Notes: generated from the sequence alone by a model not told the origin. DNA of 64,000 nucleotides from an uncultured Thermotogae bacterium (GCA_964572855.1 CAZNGF010000004.1:3497-67496); one strand, 5' to 3'. Numbered from the stretch's first letter, positions 2,886 to 49,006 are shown. Translations and numbers: made by a program.

Positions 2886-2965
2886 AGGCCGCTCCCTACT
2901 ACAACGACTACAAGATATATGTTTTCAAAGACGGTCGTTTTCGTAGGGCGTCCCAAACCGATCCG

Positions 2966-2994
2966 TTGACGGGCCCTCGAAACGGGGGTAGACT
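2966..2994 (+). promoter_or_regulatory. sigma70-like promoter of recF (TTGACG-17-TAGACT)
   Basis: hexamers ~2966 and ~2989, 17-nt spacer, about 15 nt upstream of recF ATG with GGGGGA Shine-Dalgarno. Confidence 0.45.
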
Positions 2995-3010
2995 CGCCCG
3001 GGGGGACGCG

Positions 3011-4108
3011 ATGAAGCTGTCCAAACTCACGCTCAAGAACTTTCGCAATCTGGAACCCCTCACCCTCGTTCCGGACGAGAGCCTGAACCTGATCGTCGGG
3101 GCCAACGCCTCGGGCAAGACCAACCTGTGCGAGGCCATCGTCTACGCCTCGCGCGGCAGTCTGCTCAAGGGCGAGCGCCAGCGCGAGCTCATCCGCTGGG
3201 ACGAGGCCTGGAGCACGCTCGACGCCGAGGTGGGCTCGGACCAGATCCGCATCGTCTTGAACGGGTCCGACCGCGGAAAGCAGATCACGCTCAGCGGCGA
3301 GTCCGTCACGCACGGCAAGCTGTTCGAGGTGTTCAAGGTCGTGCTGTTCACCCCGGACGACCTGCAGGTCGTCAAGGGAAGCCCGTCGGCTCGGCGCCGG
3401 CTGCTGGACGGCGGGATCGCCGAGCTGTTCCGCTCGCACCGGGGCAACCTGCAGGCCTACGAGCAGGTCGTGCGGCGCAAGAACATCCTGCTAAGCCGCG
3501 AGCGGATCGACCCCGAGCTGCTGGCGGTGTACAACGCCGAGCTGGTCAAGCGCGGGGCCAAGCTGGTTGAAACCCGGCTCAAGTATCTGGACGCGCTCAA
3601 CCGGCACGTGGCGCGCATCCACGCCGAGCTGAGCCGCCCCGCCGGCGAGCTGACGCTGTGCTACGACAGCGAGCTTGACTACGGCGCGGAGCACACCCTG
3701 GAACCGCTCGAACACGGCGTGCATCAACGCCAGCCCCAAGAGCGCCGGCGCGGTTTGAGCCTGATCGGTCCGCACCGCGACGACCTGCGCTTTTCGCTCG
3801 AGGGGATGGACCTACGCCGCTACGGCTCGCAGGGCCAGCAGAAGACCGCGCTCATCGCGACCAAGTTCGCCCAGCTCGAGCTGTTTCGCGAGCAGGTCGG
3901 CGAATACCCCGTGCTCGTGCTCGACGACGTCTTAAGCGAGCTCGACCCCGAGCGCACCCGGCTCTTGCTGGACCACCTGCCGCAGGGGTTGCAGCTGTTC
4001 CTGACCGAGACCGCGCTGAGCGCGCCGCTGGCCGCGCGCGCCGGCAAGGTGTTCCAAGTGGCGCACGGGGGCGTGCGCGAGCTCGACAAGGAGGGCGCGT
4101 GCAGCTGA
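3011..4108 (+). CDS. recF: DNA replication and repair protein RecF
   Basis: Walker A GANASGKTN, RecF signature GSQGQQKT, Walker B VLVLDDV; start at MKLSKLTL inside longer listed ORF. Confidence 0.9.
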   Translation: MKLSKLTLKNFRNLEPLTLVPDESLNLIVGANASGKTNLCEAIVYASRGSLLKGERQRELIRWDEAWSTLDAEVGSDQIRIVLNGSDRGKQITLSGESVTHGKLFEVFKVVLFTPDDLQVVKGSPSARRRLLDGGIAELFRSHRGNLQAYEQVVRRKNILLSRERIDPELLAVYNAELVKRGAKLVETRLKYLDALNRHVARIHAELSRPAGELTLCYDSELDYGAEHTLEPLEHGVHQRQPQERRRGLSLIGPHRDDLRFSLEGMDLRRYGSQGQQKTALIATKFAQLELFREQVGEYPVLVLDDVLSELDPERTRLLLDHLPQGLQLFLTETALSAPLAARAGKVFQVAHGGVRELDKEGACS

Positions 4109-4644
4109 GCGAGCTCGAACGCCTGTTCGCCCGCTACGGCCTGCGCGACGAGTTCCGCCGCCAGGAGGCGCTCTTCCTCTGGCCTCAGGTGGCCGGGGAG
4201 CGCATCAGCCGCCTCTGTTCGGCCCAGCACGTGAGCGGGGGCGTGCTCTACGTCCAGGTGGCCAACCACGTCTACGCCCAGGAGCTGACCGCGCTGCGCG
4301 AGACCTACCTGGAGCGCCTGAACGCGCGCCTGCAGGAGCCGCTCAGCGAGATCCGCTTCAGGGTGGCGTCGGTGTCGGCGCCCCCCCCGCCCAAGCCGCC
4401 GCTGCCCTCGACCGAGGGGGTCGCGCTCGACGAGGCCGAGCGCGGCGAGGCCGAGGGAGCCGCCGACTCGGTACAGGACCCGAAGCTGCGCGGCGCGTTC
4501 GCGCGCTACTTCGCGACGCTGCGCCGGCTCGAAAAGCTCAAGGCCGAGCACACCGACGAGCGCCGCTGCCCGGTCTGCGGGCTGCACCACGACGGCCCCG
4601 AGGCGCGCTGCGCCTTCTGCCGCCTGGAAGGACGGGAAGCCTGA
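4099..4644 (+). CDS. DUF721 (DciA-like) protein with C-terminal CxxC...CxxC zinc ribbon
   Basis: 10-nt overlap with recF stop, strong AAGGAGGG SD, GTG start; DUF721 genes classically follow recF; CPVCG...CAFCR motif. Confidence 0.7.
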   Translation: MQLSELERLFARYGLRDEFRRQEALFLWPQVAGERISRLCSAQHVSGGVLYVQVANHVYAQELTALRETYLERLNARLQEPLSEIRFRVASVSAPPPPKPPLPSTEGVALDEAERGEAEGAADSVQDPKLRGAFARYFATLRRLEKLKAEHTDERRCPVCGLHHDGPEARCAFCRLEGREA

Positions 4645-24904: not shown

Positions 24905-24933
24905 ACTATAGCTGAAATTTTTCAGTGAGTCAA
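24905..24933 (-). promoter_or_regulatory. promoter TTGACT-17-TATAGT of the XRE-cupin gene with perfect palindrome CTGAAATTTTTCAG filling the spacer
   Basis: read on minus strand; palindrome at ~24912-24925. Confidence 0.55.
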
Positions 24934-27450: not shown

Positions 27451-27476
27451 GATCCCTCCTTGGTTTGGATCCATTT

Positions 27477-27541
27477 CTAGCAGAGTATTGTTTAGACTGC
27501 TAAGCTACCCACACTATACCGCGGGCGGCCGGGGTTGTCAA
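27477..27541 (-). promoter_or_regulatory. hsp20 promoter TTGACA-17-TATAGT plus inverted repeat TTAGCAGTC-N9-CTCTGCTAG (CIRCE-like) in the 5' UTR
   Basis: consensus hexamers at ~27536-41 and ~27513-18 (minus strand); left arm matches CIRCE TTAGCACTC 8/9. Confidence 0.5.
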
Positions 27542-40970: not shown

Positions 40971-41070
40971 ATACACGGTACGGCCACGATGTTTCTTCTG
41001 TGTAGAGGCCCCATTCATGGGATCCGAGAGACACGCCTGTTCTTCGCCAGGTAAGCGTTGTGGGCGGCCA
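40971..41070. repeat. ~100-bp repeated element, copy 1 (about 80% identical to 48304-48400), contains hairpin GGCCCCATTCATGGGATCC
   Basis: direct alignment of both loci; overlaps 3' end of Crp-like ORF. Confidence 0.6.
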
Positions 41071-41680
41071 AGGCGCGTGGCTGCGAGCGCGATGAATCGC
41101 GCCCCCTTGTATATTGGGGCTGAATTGGCTGGCCAAGGAATAAGAGAGGAGGGGATAGACCATCGCGCCCCTTGGTCTTAGAGACCGTGGTGTAGCCGGG
41201 TCGTCCCGTCCTCTCGCCTTGTAAGCTCGCACTGTTACAGCCGAGAACCACTGTGGTCCTGATCTGCACACCTCCGTGTGTTTGAGCGATGACGGCGAGG
41301 AAATCCTGTGGGGTGAAGCGTAACAGCTGGGTCGTCTCCAGCGCCTGGGCGTAGGCGCGACGCGTGGCCTCCTCTAGCAGGGCCGATTTGCCCACGATGT
41401 CGCCGCGGCCGAGCAGCCGGATCATGAACGTGTGGCCAGCCAAGGTAGCATGGGTCAGACACATCCAACCGCGTCGCACGACGTAGACGTCCTGAGAAAG
41501 GTCACCCTGGGCAAACAGCGTCGCTCCCTGGGGGCAGGTTACCTTGGCAGGGGTGAGCCTTTGGTGATTTGACCCCGAGTGCAAAGCGGATTCCAGCAAG
41601 CCCACTTGTCCTCCTTTGGGAGCGTGTGGCGCGCGTTCCGGGGTGCACCGAGCGTTTGCCAAACGGCTTCGGCCAAGCAT
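41015..41680 (-). CDS. Crp/Fnr-like cNMP-binding domain protein lacking the HTH (C-terminus replaced by repeat-derived sequence)
   Basis: cNMP-binding blocks (GDLSQDVYVVRRG, RLLGRGDIVGKSALL, RRAYAQA); no HTH in any downstream frame. Confidence 0.5.
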   Translation of the reverse strand: MLGRSRLANARCTPERAPHAPKGGQVGLLESALHSGSNHQRLTPAKVTCPQGATLFAQGDLSQDVYVVRRGWMCLTHATLAGHTFMIRLLGRGDIVGKSALLEEATRRAYAQALETTQLLRFTPQDFLAVIAQTHGGVQIRTTVVLGCNSASLQGERTGRPGYTTVSKTKGRDGLSPPLLFLGQPIQPQYTRGRDSSRSQPRALAAHNAYLAKNRRVSRIP

Positions 41681-43429: not shown

Positions 43430-44401
43430 ATGAACGATTTCCGCACCGTGCACATCGACTTGCCCACCCCAACCGACGACGACCCGCGCCTGGGGCACCT
43501 GCTGGGGCGCGATCTGGAGGAAGGTGAGACGCCGCGCGCCGTGATCGTGGGCTTTCCGTCCGACGAGGGCGTGCGGCGCAACCGGGGGCGGCCCGGCGCG
43601 GCCGAGGCCCCCGAGGCGATCCGCGCCGCGCTCTACCGGCTCACGCCCGACCCACGCGCCTTCGAGGCGTTTGCCGACTTGCTGGTCCACACGCGCGACC
43701 TGGGCGACTTGGCGCTCACGGGCGAGGTCGAGTGCGACCAGGCCGCGCTGGGCGCGGCGCTGGCGCCCTATCTCGCGCAGGGCTGCACGGCGATCGTGAT
43801 CGGCGGCGGGCACGAGACGGCCTACGGGGCGTTCCTGGGCTACGTCGAGGCCGGCCGGCGCGTCGAGATCCTCAACTGGGACACGCACGCCGACGTGCGC
43901 CCCTTGCGCGACGGGCGGGGGCACTCGGGCTCGCCCTTCCGGCAGGCGCTGGAGCACCCCTCGCACGCCTGCACCCACTACGCCGTGGCCGGCCTGCTGC
44001 CCTACGCGGTCGCGAAGGCGCACCTGGACTACATCGAATCGCACGAGGGGCGCCACATCTGGAACGAGACGCTCTCCTATCAGGCGGTCGACGGGCTCTA
44101 CGGCTCGTTCAAGAACGACCTCATGGTGAGCTTCGACCTCGACGCCGTGGACCAACCGCACGCCCCCGGCGTGAGCGCGCCGGCGGTCGACGGCCTGAGC
44201 GCCGACCTCTGGCTCTACGCGGCGTTCCGCGCCGGGCGGCACGCGGGCGTGCGCTCGATGGACCTGGTCGAGCTCAACCCGCGGCTCGACCGCGACGGCC
44301 AGACCGCGCGGCTGGGCGCGCTCACGGTCTGGTGGTTCTTGAAGGGGCTCTCGGAGCGTGTCGAAGGGGAAGAGCCCGGCGAGCGGCCGCCGGGCTCCTA
44401 A
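43430..44401 (+). CDS. arginase/ureohydrolase family enzyme (formiminoglutamase/agmatinase-like)
   Basis: 323 aa; Mn-ligand blocks (GGGHE, DTHADV, SFDLDAVD). Confidence 0.8.
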   Translation: MNDFRTVHIDLPTPTDDDPRLGHLLGRDLEEGETPRAVIVGFPSDEGVRRNRGRPGAAEAPEAIRAALYRLTPDPRAFEAFADLLVHTRDLGDLALTGEVECDQAALGAALAPYLAQGCTAIVIGGGHETAYGAFLGYVEAGRRVEILNWDTHADVRPLRDGRGHSGSPFRQALEHPSHACTHYAVAGLLPYAVAKAHLDYIESHEGRHIWNETLSYQAVDGLYGSFKNDLMVSFDLDAVDQPHAPGVSAPAVDGLSADLWLYAAFRAGRHAGVRSMDLVELNPRLDRDGQTARLGALTVWWFLKGLSERVEGEEPGERPPGS

Positions 44402-44415
44402 GGCGATCCATGGGG

Positions 44416-44433
44416 TAACAGAACACTGTTATA
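44416..44433. promoter_or_regulatory. palindromic motif TAACAGAACACTGTTATA (copy A; operator/terminator hairpin candidate)
   Basis: 13-bp core AGAACA-C-TGTTAT; second copy inside promoter at 44644-44660. Confidence 0.45.
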
Positions 44434-44453
44434 GAAATGGCGGCGCAAAATTT

Positions 44454-44618
44454 TTACGCCAACAGCAGGCTCAGCGTGCGCTTCAGCCGGCGCCACCAGG
44501 AGCCGCGCGCGCGGCGCGCTTGGCTCAGCAGGCGCTCGGTATCGGCTTCCCGGAGCAATTCCGTGTAGTGCGTTTTGGCGCGCTCGGTCATCATGTCGTT
44601 GTTGTAGTCGTAGAGCAT
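44454..44618 (-). CDS. small basic protein family, copy 1 (53 aa + stop), hypothetical
   Basis: ATG with GAGGTGAGG SD; homologous to 47970-48167 product (conserved E-R-x7-LL-x-EA-x2-ERL-x3-ARR-x-R-x5-RR-L-x3-L). Confidence 0.5.
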   Translation of the reverse strand: MLYDYNNDMMTERAKTHYTELLREADTERLLSQARRARGSWWRRLKRTLSLLLA

Positions 44619-44637
44619 GCACCTCACCTCGATACGC

Positions 44638-44666
44638 AGTATAACATAACAATGTTCTGTTGTCAA
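44638..44666 (-). promoter_or_regulatory. consensus promoter TTGACA-17-TATACT with palindrome ATAACAATGTTCT inside the spacer
   Basis: minus-strand hexamers at ~44661-66 and ~44638-43; drives small gene 44454-44618. Confidence 0.6.
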
Positions 44667-44796
44667 GAGATACGCGAAATTTGCGTTCTGTTCTGCGATC
44701 GAGGCGATGTGCCGGAGGCGTACCGTTGCCCCGTTTCGTCCCCGCGGCCTATACTGGGGCCACCCATCCAGACAGTCCTGCAAAGGAACGTGACCC

Positions 44797-46179
44797 ATGC
44801 ACGTCACCAGTTACGGCGCGGCGCGGGAAGTGACCGGCTCCTGCCACCTGCTCGAGGTCGGCAACGAACACGTCCTGATCGACTGCGGCCTGTTCCAGGG
44901 CGGCGCGCGCCTGGAGGCCAAGAACCACGACCCGTTCCCCTTCGAGCCCGAGCGGATCAGCCAGGTGTTTTTGACCCACGCGCACCTGGACCACTGCGGT
45001 CGGCTGCCGCTGTTGGTCAAGCGCGGCTTCCGCGGAGAGATCATCACCTCGGCGGCCACGGTCGAGGTGGTCAAGTTCATCCTGCTGGACGCGGCCCACG
45101 TCATGCACGAGGAATACCTGTCCGAGCGGCGCCACCGCCGCCGGCGCGGCGAATCGCTACTCCCCCCGCTCTACGACGAGACCGACGTGCTCGAGACGCT
45201 GAACCACCTCGCCCCCGTGCGCGAGAACGGCCGCTTGCACGACGTCGGTCCCCACTTGCGCGTCGCCTTCCACAACGCGGGGCACATCCTGGGCTCGCGC
45301 TTCCTGCAGATCGAGGCGCGGGAGGGCGGGCAGACGCAGCGAATCACCTTCGGCGGCGACCTGGGCAACCCCGGGCGCAGCGTGATGCCCGACTACGCCA
45401 TGCCTCAGCCCTGCGACGTGGTTTACTGCGAGTCGACCTACGGGGACCGCGACCACCGCGACCACGACGGCACGATTCAGGAGTTCGAGGCGGCCGTGCG
45501 CGACTGCCTGGGGCGCGGCGGCAACGTCGTGATCCCCTCGTTCGCCTTGGAACGCTCGCAGGACGTGCTGTTCGCGCTCGAGGACATGGAACGACATGGG
45601 CGGCTGCCCAAGAAAACGAAGGTTTTTCTCAACAGCCCGCTGGCCATCCACATCACGCGCGTCTACCAGCGCTTCCCCGGCGAGCTGGGCTCGGCCGTGC
45701 GCCGGCACATCGAGCGCGGGGACGACCCCTTCCACTTCCCCGGCGTGCGCTACAGCAAGACCGAACGCGAGTCGCGCGAGCTCAACGACCTCGAAGGCGG
45801 CAACATCCTGATCGCCGGCAGCGGCATGTGCAACGGCGGGCGCGTGCTGCACCACCTGAAGCACAACCTCTGGCGCGAGGAGTCGAGCGTGATCCTGGTG
45901 GGCTACCAGGCCAAGGACTCGCTGGGCCGGCTGCTGGTCGAGGGCCGCGAGCGCGTCAAGATCTTCGGCGAGGAGATCGCCGTGCGCGCCAAGGTCCACA
46001 CCGTCAACGGCTTTTCCGCCCACGCCGGCCAGAGCGCCCTGCTCGACTGGCTCGAGGCCACGGGCGACGCCGAGGTCCGCCTGGTCCACGGCGAGTCCAA
46101 CGGGCTGGACGGGCTCAAGTCCAAGCTCGAAGCGCGCGGGCGGCGAGCGACGATCGTGGAGGAGGGCGAGATTGACTGA
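44797..46179 (+). CDS. metallo-beta-lactamase fold, beta-CASP family ribonuclease (RNase J/CPSF-like)
   Basis: 460 aa; HxHxDH (THAHLDHCG), beta-CASP motifs, C-terminal RMMBL region. Confidence 0.8.
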   Translation: MHVTSYGAAREVTGSCHLLEVGNEHVLIDCGLFQGGARLEAKNHDPFPFEPERISQVFLTHAHLDHCGRLPLLVKRGFRGEIITSAATVEVVKFILLDAAHVMHEEYLSERRHRRRRGESLLPPLYDETDVLETLNHLAPVRENGRLHDVGPHLRVAFHNAGHILGSRFLQIEAREGGQTQRITFGGDLGNPGRSVMPDYAMPQPCDVVYCESTYGDRDHRDHDGTIQEFEAAVRDCLGRGGNVVIPSFALERSQDVLFALEDMERHGRLPKKTKVFLNSPLAIHITRVYQRFPGELGSAVRRHIERGDDPFHFPGVRYSKTERESRELNDLEGGNILIAGSGMCNGGRVLHHLKHNLWREESSVILVGYQAKDSLGRLLVEGRERVKIFGEEIAVRAKVHTVNGFSAHAGQSALLDWLEATGDAEVRLVHGESNGLDGLKSKLEARGRRATIVEEGEID

Positions 46180-47379: not shown

Positions 47380-47622
47380 GTGAAAGGCCGAATCGCACTC
47401 GTCACCGTGCTGGCCGACGACGTGCCGGCGTTGCGGGATTTCTATCGGGACGTGCTCGGCTTTGAGGTCCAACAGGACCTGGGTTCGTACGTCGAGTTCC
47501 ACTCGCGCGGCGCCGCGCCCGTCAAGGGGCCGGCCGACATGCCCTGGGGCCAGCGCGCGGCCTTCTTCGCCGACCCCGAGGGCAACGTCCACGAGCTGTT
47601 CGCGGAGTTGCAGCAATCGTGA
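47380..47622 (+). CDS. short VOC (glyoxalase/bleomycin-resistance fold) family protein, possibly truncated
   Basis: 80 aa, GTG start; N-terminal I-A-L-V-T-V-L-A-D-D-V-x-A-L-R-D-F-Y-R-D-V-L-G-F-E-V motif. Confidence 0.45.
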   Translation: MKGRIALVTVLADDVPALRDFYRDVLGFEVQQDLGSYVEFHSRGAAPVKGPADMPWGQRAAFFADPEGNVHELFAELQQS

Positions 47623-47657: not shown

Positions 47658-47686
47658 CTTGACATCAGACCGACGAGGGAGTATGC
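47658..47686 (+). promoter_or_regulatory. consensus sigma70 promoter TTGACA-17-TATGCT
   Basis: exact hexamers, 17-nt spacer. Confidence 0.6.
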
Positions 47687-47729
47687 TATCGCATTACGAT
47701 TTAACCCAGACCGAAAGGACGGTGGTCCC

Positions 47730-47789
47730 GATGTTCAAAGTCATTCCTCAAGCGGTCACCGCAGGTCTGTGGTTCCCGCACGCCGCCTA
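47730..47789 (+). CDS. 19-aa peptide ORF MFKVIPQAVTAGLWFPHAA (leader peptide or small hydrophobic peptide?)
   Basis: ATG about 37 nt after predicted TSS, GGTGG 5 nt upstream; followed by ~180-nt spacer before next gene. Confidence 0.3.
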
Positions 47790-47969
47790 GCCCTTCTGCG
47801 TTGAGCGGCGTTCGGCTTCCACGGCCACGCTGCTCCTGACGTTTTCTCTCAAAGCACCACCCGTCACGAGCGCGGTATCCAGACCTGCGATTCCCAATTC
47901 AGACCATGTCGTCCGTGTGCGTCGCTTCGGCGCGCACTCACGCGCGTACAGGCGAGAGGGGGTGGTACT

Positions 47970-48167
47970 ATGTGGGATCTACAGCCCGAGCTCAACCGGC
48001 ATCTGGCGGCGGAACGACACCGCGCGCTGCTGAGCGAGGCGGAGCGGGAACGGCTGTCACGCGGCGCGCGCCGTCGCAGACCCAGGATGCGGCATCGACT
48101 GGCGTATCATTTGGGCGGGGCGTTGTGCATGCTGGGCGCGCGGCTGCAAAGCGGTCAGAACTCCTGA
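47970..48167 (+). CDS. small basic protein family, copy 2 (65 aa)
   Basis: ATG with GGGGGTGG SD; homolog of 44454-44618 product. Confidence 0.5.
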   Translation: MWDLQPELNRHLAAERHRALLSEAERERLSRGARRRRPRMRHRLAYHLGGALCMLGARLQSGQNS

Positions 48168-48247
48168 GACACCGAACAGACGCGAAAGGAGCTTTTCATG
48201 ATTCCATTGACCCGAGTTGACAAGCCCCACACCGCTTCACGACAGCA

Positions 48248-48285
48248 GAGCGCCCTGCACGGTCAGGGCGCTCTCGCTTCTTTTC
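48248..48285 (+). terminator. Rho-independent terminator GAGCGCCCTG-CACGGT-CAGGGCGCTC + TCGCTTCTTTTCCC
   Basis: 10-bp stem and T-rich tail 80 nt after small gene stop. Confidence 0.6.
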
Positions 48286-48303
48286 CCACCCGCGTTTCCA
48301 CCT

Positions 48304-48400
48304 AGTACACCGCCACGATGTTTCTTTTGTGTAGGGGTCCCATTTCATGGGACCCGGCATACACGCCCGGTTCTTGACCAAGTGGGCGTTGTGGACGGCC
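48304..48400. repeat. ~100-bp repeated element, copy 2 (hairpin GGGGTCCCATTTCATGGGACCC)
   Basis: aligns with 40971-41070. Confidence 0.6.
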
Positions 48401-48563
48401 AGCACCCCGGCGGTTGCAGCCGCGTCCAGGCTCGTGCGCAGGCCGATCCTCCGGAACGAATACACCCCGGCCACCTCGGAGATGGGATTCCGCCCCGACG
48501 CGCGGAGGCGCTCGAACGGCTCGATTCCCCGTAGCGCGTCGTGCAGCGTGTCGGGAAGCGCCT

Positions 48564-48926
48564 TCAACATGGCGTACATGGTCCCGTACTGCGCCGAGCT
48601 GAAGCCCTCGGCCGCCGGCACGCCCAGCCCCGATTGCGCAGCGCGTTGGCCAGCGCCAAGCGCGCGAACTCCCGCGCTTCCAGTGCCGCGCCCGCGCCCA
48701 AAAGGGTTTGTAGCGCGCGCTCGTCCCCTTCTTCCCAGAGCGCGTGCAGCGCGGGCAAGGCAAAGCGCGGGTCGGGGTCGAAGCGCTGGCCGGCCGCGTC
48801 ACCGTCGAGGCCAAACGCGACGGGCGCGACTTGGACGGGACCGGCCGCTTGGGCCGGCGCGGGGGAGGCGCTCAGGCACAGCAGGGCGAGCAGGGCCGCG
48901 AGCGGGAGGCAGCGTATCGGGTTCAT
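48564..48926 (-). CDS. secreted hypothetical protein (possible 5' part of a frameshifted gene continuing in ORF 48196-48621)
   Basis: ATG MNPIRCLPLAALLALLCLSASPAPAQA signal peptide. Confidence 0.35.
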   Translation of the reverse strand: MNPIRCLPLAALLALLCLSASPAPAQAAGPVQVAPVAFGLDGDAAGQRFDPDPRFALPALHALWEEGDERALQTLLGAGAALEAREFARLALANALRNRGWACRRPRASARRSTGPCTPC

Positions 48927-49006
48927 GCGGGCATGATATCGGCTGGCGCAGGGCACGACATGGCCCGTAGGGGCGGGTCCCCGTGCCTGCCCCGGCGCCT
49001 CAAGCC

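Follow-up and report, generated by a model that had tools for sequence, protein, structure and literature searches.

Two small protein genes, ORF1 and ORF2, lie 3.4 kb apart in the 64,000-nucleotide stretch of DNA analysed here (the window), and on balance we read them as genuine genes restricted to one bacterial lineage, probably old paralogues, the first of which would be gated by a repressor. ORF1 (44454-44618, minus strand) encodes 54 amino acids (MLYDYNNDMM...LSLLLA) and ORF2 (47970-48167, plus strand) encodes 65 amino acids. An earlier note on this DNA had described both as members of one small basic protein family, and the reading frames and translations given there reproduce exactly.

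ORF1 is a genuine coding gene, as its codon statistics and its homologues demonstrate. The codon log-likelihood of 0.757 per codon and the GC3 of 0.89 are level with those of the neighbouring enzymes. The codon score lies above the 99th percentile of the 141 window ORFs of 45-80 codons, and the other five frames over the same DNA have negative scores. The gene is conserved outside this strain. A homologue (P0001, in locus L002, JGI sample 3300023214) is 94% identical and likewise sits beside a HutG-like gene, and a second, of 51 amino acids (P0003, in locus L083, JGI sample 3300023218), is 69% identical with an E-value of 8e-13 in a phmmer search of 1.84 billion representatives. Start, stop and frame are kept in both, the 9-nt deletion in L083 being in-frame, and L083 also retains the Shine-Dalgarno site, the promoter core and the terminator hairpin. 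The possibility of a structured RNA in place of an mRNA was ruled out: the predicted fold of the ORF1 transcript is no more stable than that of shuffled sequences (z=0.21), and no Rfam family matches it.

The ORF1 protein is evolving fast. It differs from its L083 counterpart at 43 of 165 nucleotides, with a dN/dS of 0.40 as compared with an omega of 0.15 for the C-terminus of the adjacent HutG-like gene. Because the differences from L002 comprise one synonymous and three non-synonymous changes, and those from L083 are evenly distributed across codon positions, the constraint on this protein is moderate at best. Its first 30 residues carry a net charge of -3 and the C-terminal part one of +7, and AlphaFold2 models it as a single long helix (pLDDT 68).

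The promoter of ORF1 (44638-44666, minus strand) consists of a -35 element TTGACA (44666-44661), a 17-nt spacer and a TG-extended -10 element TATACT (44643-44638). It matches 11 of the 12 consensus positions in addition to the TG and ranks top among the five sites with at least 10 of 12 matches in the 64 kb. Of its 29 positions, one differs in L002 and two in L083; the DNA upstream of the -35 element differs from L083 at 41 of 95 positions. A Shine-Dalgarno site, GAGGTGAGGTG, is read from the sequence at 44620-44630 (minus strand), with GAGGTGAG conserved in both L002 and L083, and the 5' untranslated region is predicted to span only about 12 nt. The earlier note had credited each gene with an AT-rich islet, a near-consensus sigma70 promoter and a good Shine-Dalgarno site. 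ORF1 has all three, its islet showing a GC content of 0.43-0.51 at 44550-44700 against 0.67 (67.4%) for the window. ORF2, however, has a GC content of 0.68-0.74, and the promoter-like site nearest to it (TTGACA-17-TATGCT, 47659-47687, plus strand, 10 of 12 matches) lies 283 nt upstream of its ATG; its counterpart of a Shine-Dalgarno site, likewise read from the sequence, is a purine-rich stretch, AGAGGGGGTGG (47955-47965, plus strand).

The whole spacer of the ORF1 promoter is occupied by a 17-bp palindrome, ACAGAACATTGTTATGT (44644-44660, minus strand; putative operator 1). The 15-mer ACAGAACAYTGTTAT is found at only two sites in the 64 kb, 44646-44660 and 44418-44432, where 0.22 matches would be expected by chance in the window with up to three mismatches allowed. 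The second site (putative operator 2, ACAGAACACTGTTAT, plus strand) is in inverted orientation, and the pair forms a 15-nt inverted repeat with one mismatch and about 213 nt between the arms. Operator 2 is positioned past the terminator, 21 nt beyond the ORF1 stop codon; the HutG-like gene, which is convergent with ORF1, ends 16 nt before it. The core of operator 1, AGAACATTGTTATGTTATACTG, is identical in all three lineages. Operator 2 is unchanged at its 15 positions in L083 and has one difference in L002, against 6 of 21 differences from L083 in the adjacent 21-nt spacer; both copies are thus present in L083, and in L002 with one substitution. Because the two palindromes are near-invariant while the flanking DNA diverges, we read them as candidate repressor operators. 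The window contains no third copy, including ahead of a regulator gene, and no copy was found beyond the ORF1 locus in the 64 kb or in the 88 loci searched. A link to the Crp-like or the XRE-cupin gene of the window was rejected, as no common site is present.

Two hairpins flank the gene. One, resembling an intrinsic terminator (44441-44461, minus strand), overlaps the ORF1 stop codon and is kept in L083 with an altered loop. The other, followed by a T-rich tail, is found on the opposite strand immediately outside the -35 element (44672-44686, plus strand); in L083 the stem still pairs despite a changed sequence, and the T-run is longer. This hairpin would end read-through from the HutG-like gene running antisense over ORF1. 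A consensus scan, which could miss a weak promoter, detected no promoter-like plus-strand site for an antisense RNA at 44400-44700, and a promoter-like site at 44726-44755 is directed away from ORF1, toward a beta-CASP gene.

The coding evidence for ORF2 is thinner than that for ORF1. Its codon score of -0.12 per codon, its GC3 of 0.76 and its GC content by codon position (0.74/0.55/0.76) are unlike those of genuine genes here. Its sole known relative, the second member of its 90% cluster, is a protein from JGI sample 3300023214 (P0120, in locus L089) with 62 of 65 residues identical (95%). Since six of the nine nucleotide differences from this relative are synonymous and three non-synonymous, ORF2 is probably translated. 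Its frame has the best synonymous ratio of the six, the others reaching at most four synonymous changes, with an omega of ~0.19 and a binomial P of 0.016 for the synonymous excess. The start codon and the Shine-Dalgarno-like stretch are identical in L089, and ORF2 has diverged by 4.5% as compared with 10% for the 180-nt spacer upstream; L089 begins at window position 47692, and this comparison therefore excludes the promoter-like site at 47659-47687. AlphaFold2 models the protein as two helices (residues 5-35 and 40-63, pLDDT 77).

The putative leader of ORF2 contains a 19-codon ORF, MFKVIPQAVTAGLWFPHAA (47731-47790, plus strand), which L089 has in the same frame and at the same length with three amino-acid changes, and whose preceding 39 nt are invariant; its status as a gene is uncertain. 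Eighty nucleotides past ORF2, a strong terminator hairpin (48247-48274, plus strand) has 11 perfect pairs followed by a T-run and a folding z-score of -3.0, and the stretch 48168-48277 differs from L089 at 2 of 110 positions. Pairing of an upstream segment with the Shine-Dalgarno-like stretch was rejected, as that segment is not conserved in L089. A 35-codon ORF downstream of ORF2 was also rejected: it includes the terminator, and its 3' end departs from L089 just beyond the hairpin.

The surroundings of ORF2 are decaying in the window strain, and ORF2 is intact in both strains. Upstream, a VOC/glyoxalase-like ORF of 80 codons (47380-47622) is what an in-frame internal deletion has left of a longer gene, by comparison with contig L086, in which the gene extends well past the deletion point until the contig ends within it. 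Downstream, a 437-amino-acid gene that is intact in L089 is represented in the window (48278-48975, minus strand) by the fragments 48398-48626 and 48695-48975, its 3' part being replaced by a repeat of about 100 nt. The N-terminus of the 437-amino-acid protein reads as hydrophobic and signal-peptide-like. The repeat is found in the same orientation at 40975-41075 and 48310-48410, holds the hairpin GGGTCCCATTTCATGGGACCC and overlaps the 3' ends of minus-strand ORFs ending in ...LA(A/V)HNA(Y/H)L(A/V)KNR. It probably has further copies in the genome, because the second copy marks a break in Logan contig L001.

The earlier note had based the family on one extended residue pattern. Its central part, LLxEAxxERLxxxARRxR, is indeed common to both proteins without gaps, but its outer parts do not hold for ORF2, in which E-R stands three residues before LL and not seven, and "RR-L" reads HRL. 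The shared 18-residue motif lies at an equal distance from the N-terminus in the two proteins; only ORF1 and ORF2 have it in the window, and a six-frame translation of other loci, 0.9 Mb in all, does not contain it. Smith-Waterman alignment with ORF2 gives scores of 54 for ORF1 (z 5.5) and 61 for P0003 (z 7.1) relative to composition-preserving shuffles, and the score of ORF1 with ORF2 is reached by 1-2 in 10,000 of them. Among 1008 six-frame pieces of the window, ORF1 and ORF2 are mutual best non-self HMMER hits (E 0.04-0.11), and a search of 16,946 pieces from 1 Mb with the ORF2 profile puts P0003 at the top (E 0.01). Comparison by hhalign returns a probability of 74% (E 2.7e-5), and the AlphaFold2 models, of low to moderate confidence, are both helical with a similar layout and a possible break at the Arg-rich stretch. 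A candidate third family member (2911-3141, minus strand) was found to be spurious, lying antisense to the 5' end of recF. Taken together, these comparisons are suggestive of homology and do not prove it, and we regard ORF1 and ORF2 as somewhat more probably paralogous than otherwise.

The competing view, that both genes are real but unrelated and their likeness is convergent, is appreciable though the less probable of the two. For a genome of 67% GC, no helix costs less to encode than a short one rich in Glu, Ala, Leu and Arg. Composition-adjusted BLASTP gives borderline E-values of 0.2 and 0.08, and the raw Smith-Waterman scores of ORF2 are equal or better against five spurious Arg-rich frames than against ORF1. 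The ORF1-family profile finds ORF2 with an E-value of only 1.4, all directions other than ORF2 to P0003 falling at 0.63-1.4 among the 16,946 pieces. Residues invariant in the ORF1 group (MLY, NDMM, KTHY, GSWW, LSLLLA) are absent from ORF2, so that the group shares with it only LL-EA--ERL and a few Arg and Leu residues; ARRxR, common to ORF1 and ORF2, is lost in P0003. The promoter and operator architectures of the two genes are also entirely different. Against convergence stand the rarity of the observed score among shuffles, the lack of the motif elsewhere, the hhalign result, the identical register from the N-terminus at so short a genomic distance, and the position of P0003, which is closer to ORF2 than ORF1 is, as intermediates of a true family look. 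A more radical alternative makes ORF2 a chance or decaying ORF in degraded DNA, leaving a "family" of one member. The atypical codon usage, the lack of a promoter within 280 nt, the location flanked by a VOC gene with an internal deletion and by the remains of the 437-amino-acid gene, and a sole relative that is 95% identical all agree with it. We nevertheless consider it unlikely, given that this is the only frame in which two thirds of the substitutions are synonymous, that ORF2 has diverged less than its upstream spacer, that its start and Shine-Dalgarno-like stretch are unchanged, and that it has stayed intact in both strains despite the decay of neighbouring genes.

Two further explanations concern what ORF1 is for and how it is controlled. 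The earlier note saw in these proteins DNA-damage- or stress-induced, membrane-targeted division inhibitors or type I toxin-like peptides, an idea that we now hold to be very improbable and, as regards division inhibition or toxicity, pure speculation. With its strong promoter overlapped by a putative operator, the isolated small gene ORF1 does have a layout that fits such a role. The C-terminal residues 40-53 have a hydrophobic moment of 0.67, but this amphipathic tail is not kept in P0003. The maxima on the Kyte-Doolittle 19-residue scale are -0.44 for ORF1, 0.13 for P0003 and 0.73 for ORF2, far under the transmembrane threshold of about 1.6, and each protein carries 18-20 charged residues; the "hydrophobic tail" thus contains no segment of transmembrane grade. 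DinB_2 genes are indeed nearby, but DinB_2 is the name of a family, and the vicinity of DinB_2 and beta-CASP genes is not evidence of induction. A LexA box of the Cheo type (GAAC-N4-GTTC), a type assumed from the organism's likely affiliation, is absent from both ORFs and occurs in the window only at 4117, the ORF1 site reading GAAC-N4-TTAT. No match to the RDRM frame TTnnGT-N5-ACnnAA, derived here from the sites listed in PMC1978522, is present in the window, and the ORF1 promoter has a TTATGT half-site only. Searches of PADLOC and PHROGs gave no result, and no promoter-like site for an antisense RNA was detected across ORF1. The second explanation takes the 243-bp segment 44418-44660 for a MITE-like element or an inverton, the inversion of which would part the -35 element from the -10 element and ORF1 and so act as an ON/OFF switch. 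The inverted repeat is far above chance, the mirrored asymmetry of its two sites is conserved in three lineages, and one arm falls exactly between -35 and -10. However, the segment has the same orientation and place beside the HutG-like gene in four independent assemblies, has no more copies in the DNA searched and shows no target-site duplication in its flanks, and each arm is itself palindromic, as is typical of a repressor operator. We consider a mobile or invertible cassette highly improbable and retain the candidate operators.

The layout of ORF1 can be set beside known systems. SOS-induced small division inhibitors (SidA of Caulobacter, YneA of Bacillus, ChiZ of Mycobacterium) are, like ORF1, encoded by stand-alone short genes with a palindromic repressor site over a strong promoter. 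A repressor site placed in this way would keep such a gene silent until a signal arrives and then allow a burst of expression. ORF1 differs from them in its operator (AGAACA-N1-TGTTAT, not a LexA box), in lacking a transmembrane segment and any sequence similarity, and in having a second operator past the terminator. Type I toxins (TisB/IstR-1, Hok/Sok, DinQ/AgrB) resemble the two proteins in being shorter than 70 amino acids and helical without recognisable domains, and a parallel may exist in antisense transcription that would enter ORF1 by read-through of the convergent gene and stop at the hairpin 44672-44686. These toxins are hydrophobic membrane helices, whereas the ORF1 and ORF2 proteins are highly charged, and no dedicated antisense promoter was found at ORF1. 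Arg-rich motif peptides such as lambda N and HIV Rev may find a likeness in an Arg-rich helical stretch with Trp (SQARRARGSWWRRLKR; ARRRRPRMRHR), and the location of ORF1 next to a beta-CASP nuclease gene may be counted toward the same likeness; there is, however, no sequence homology, and one relative keeps ORF1 with most of the beta-CASP gene gone. In the radiation and desiccation response of Deinococcus, a 17-bp RDRM is bound by the XRE repressor DdrO (PMC1978522, PMC6300522). Here the likeness lies in a 17-bp palindrome over the promoter of a small lineage-specific gene and in the RDRM-like left half TTATGT at ORF1, but the palindrome has a different sequence and the organism is not Deinococcus.

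Neither protein is anything known, as the earlier note had stated: Pfam, NCBIfam, PHROGs, PADLOC and the PDB sequences contain no match to ORF1 or ORF2, the best E-values being at least 0.007 and far below cut-offs in significance. "Previously unnoticed" is accurate in that no name has been given to them, but the exact sequences are already called in NCBI and Logan records. The exhaustive phmmer search of 1.84 billion proteins yielded one further relative, P0003, and one spurious repeat protein, but it did not recover ORF2. A word-indexed protein search recovered near-identical sequences only, and scans of metagenome contigs, a viral scan and tblastn against plasmids found nothing. Seven distant DinB_2 loci (L084, L085, L090-L094) are without an ORF1-like or ORF2-like ORF. 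The small ORFs are thus restricted to one narrow lineage and four sequencing samples, comprising one NCBI assembly, an identical Logan assembly and two JGI samples; relatives of the neighbouring genes occur in a few more.

The gene neighbourhood given in the earlier note was confirmed, with a beta-CASP MBL nuclease and two DinB_2 genes, to which we add the HutG-like arginase-fold gene and CysQ. The nearest named homologues of the DinB_2 genes come from Armatimonadota. In L083, where positions 698-759 correspond to 44694-45922 of the window, the beta-CASP gene lacks about 1.2 kb and the first DinB gene about 180 nt, and ORF1 is kept with all its signals. Since ORF1 persists in this relative despite the removal of most of the beta-CASP gene and a portion of the DinB gene, a functional tie of ORF1 to these neighbours is unlikely. 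Each of three related strains has different deletions in this 5-kb region. The best NCBIfam model for the beta-CASP nuclease (44797-46179) is the MBL/beta-CASP part of the type VII CRISPR-associated Cas14, a match below threshold (351 bits against a cut-off of 800) over model positions 1-425 of 612.

The reading of two real, lineage-restricted genes leads to the following model, in which we infer repressor binding, looping, paralogy and any cellular role. Both proteins would be entirely helical. The N-terminal helix, which spans about 30 residues and is net acidic, bears LLxEAxxERL and would be followed by an Arg-rich stretch and a short hydrophobic or amphipathic end. A dimeric DNA-binding repressor would occupy the 17-bp palindrome in the ORF1 spacer and turn the promoter off. 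The second site, about 214 bp away, might strengthen repression through looping or block read-through from the convergent HutG-like gene. Once the repressor leaves, ORF1 mRNA with a very short leader would be made in bulk, whereas the ORF2 protein would be produced from a transcript that is longer and under looser control. The proteins themselves would be soluble or peripheral and not membrane-spanning, and the partner bound by their Arg/Trp-rich C-terminal helix may be nucleic acid, another protein or the surface of a membrane. That ORF1 itself might bind DNA in ribbon-helix-helix or bZIP-like fashion was rejected: there is no Pfam match, the N-terminus was judged too acidic, and the helix lengths are wrong for a ribbon-helix-helix. 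A bolder conjecture, which we rate as a long shot, would see in the ORF1-like genes a novel class of single-helix effectors that are held under tight repression and evolve fast. In these, the acidic N-terminal half would mask the Arg/Trp-rich amphipathic C-terminal half; once derepressed, the protein would act on RNA or a membrane surface in the manner of an endogenous cationic peptide, under the control of a two-operator clamp enclosing the entire gene or of the 243-bp inversion.

Nothing in bacterial proteomes is less well charted than proteins of fewer than 70 residues, and the lineage studied here, probably a relative of the Armatimonadota, is uncultured, with almost no experimental data. 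The ORF1 unit offers a clean and compact example of what appears to be a strongly gated small gene, and its two conserved palindromes provide a direct route to its regulator and the corresponding regulon. In practical terms the value is nevertheless limited, because the genes are known from four samples, have no inferred function and would need a cultured host or heterologous expression.

Several other regions of the window are of interest. Twelve DnaA-box-like 9-mers (TTTTCCACA or TTTTCAACA), six on each strand, are found within 220 nt at 2662-2882, against a chance expectation of 0.29 for the whole window. They occupy low-GC DNA between an IscA/HesB-like gene and recF (2966-4108), and the cluster looks like a chromosomal replication origin. 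A small heat-shock gene of the Hsp20 type carries the 11/12 promoter TTGACA-17-TATAGT (27476-27541, minus strand) and a CIRCE-like inverted repeat, TTAGCAGTC-N9-CTCTGCTAG, in its 5' untranslated region; this suggests HrcA-type control through a variant operator. The promoter of an XRE-HTH gene with a putative C-terminal cupin domain, as read from the sequence (24905-24933, minus strand, 10 of 12 matches), has a near-palindrome, CTGAAAAATTTCAG, in its spacer and lies with its -10 element only 10 nt ahead of the ATG, so that the mRNA is probably almost leaderless and the gene probably autoregulated.
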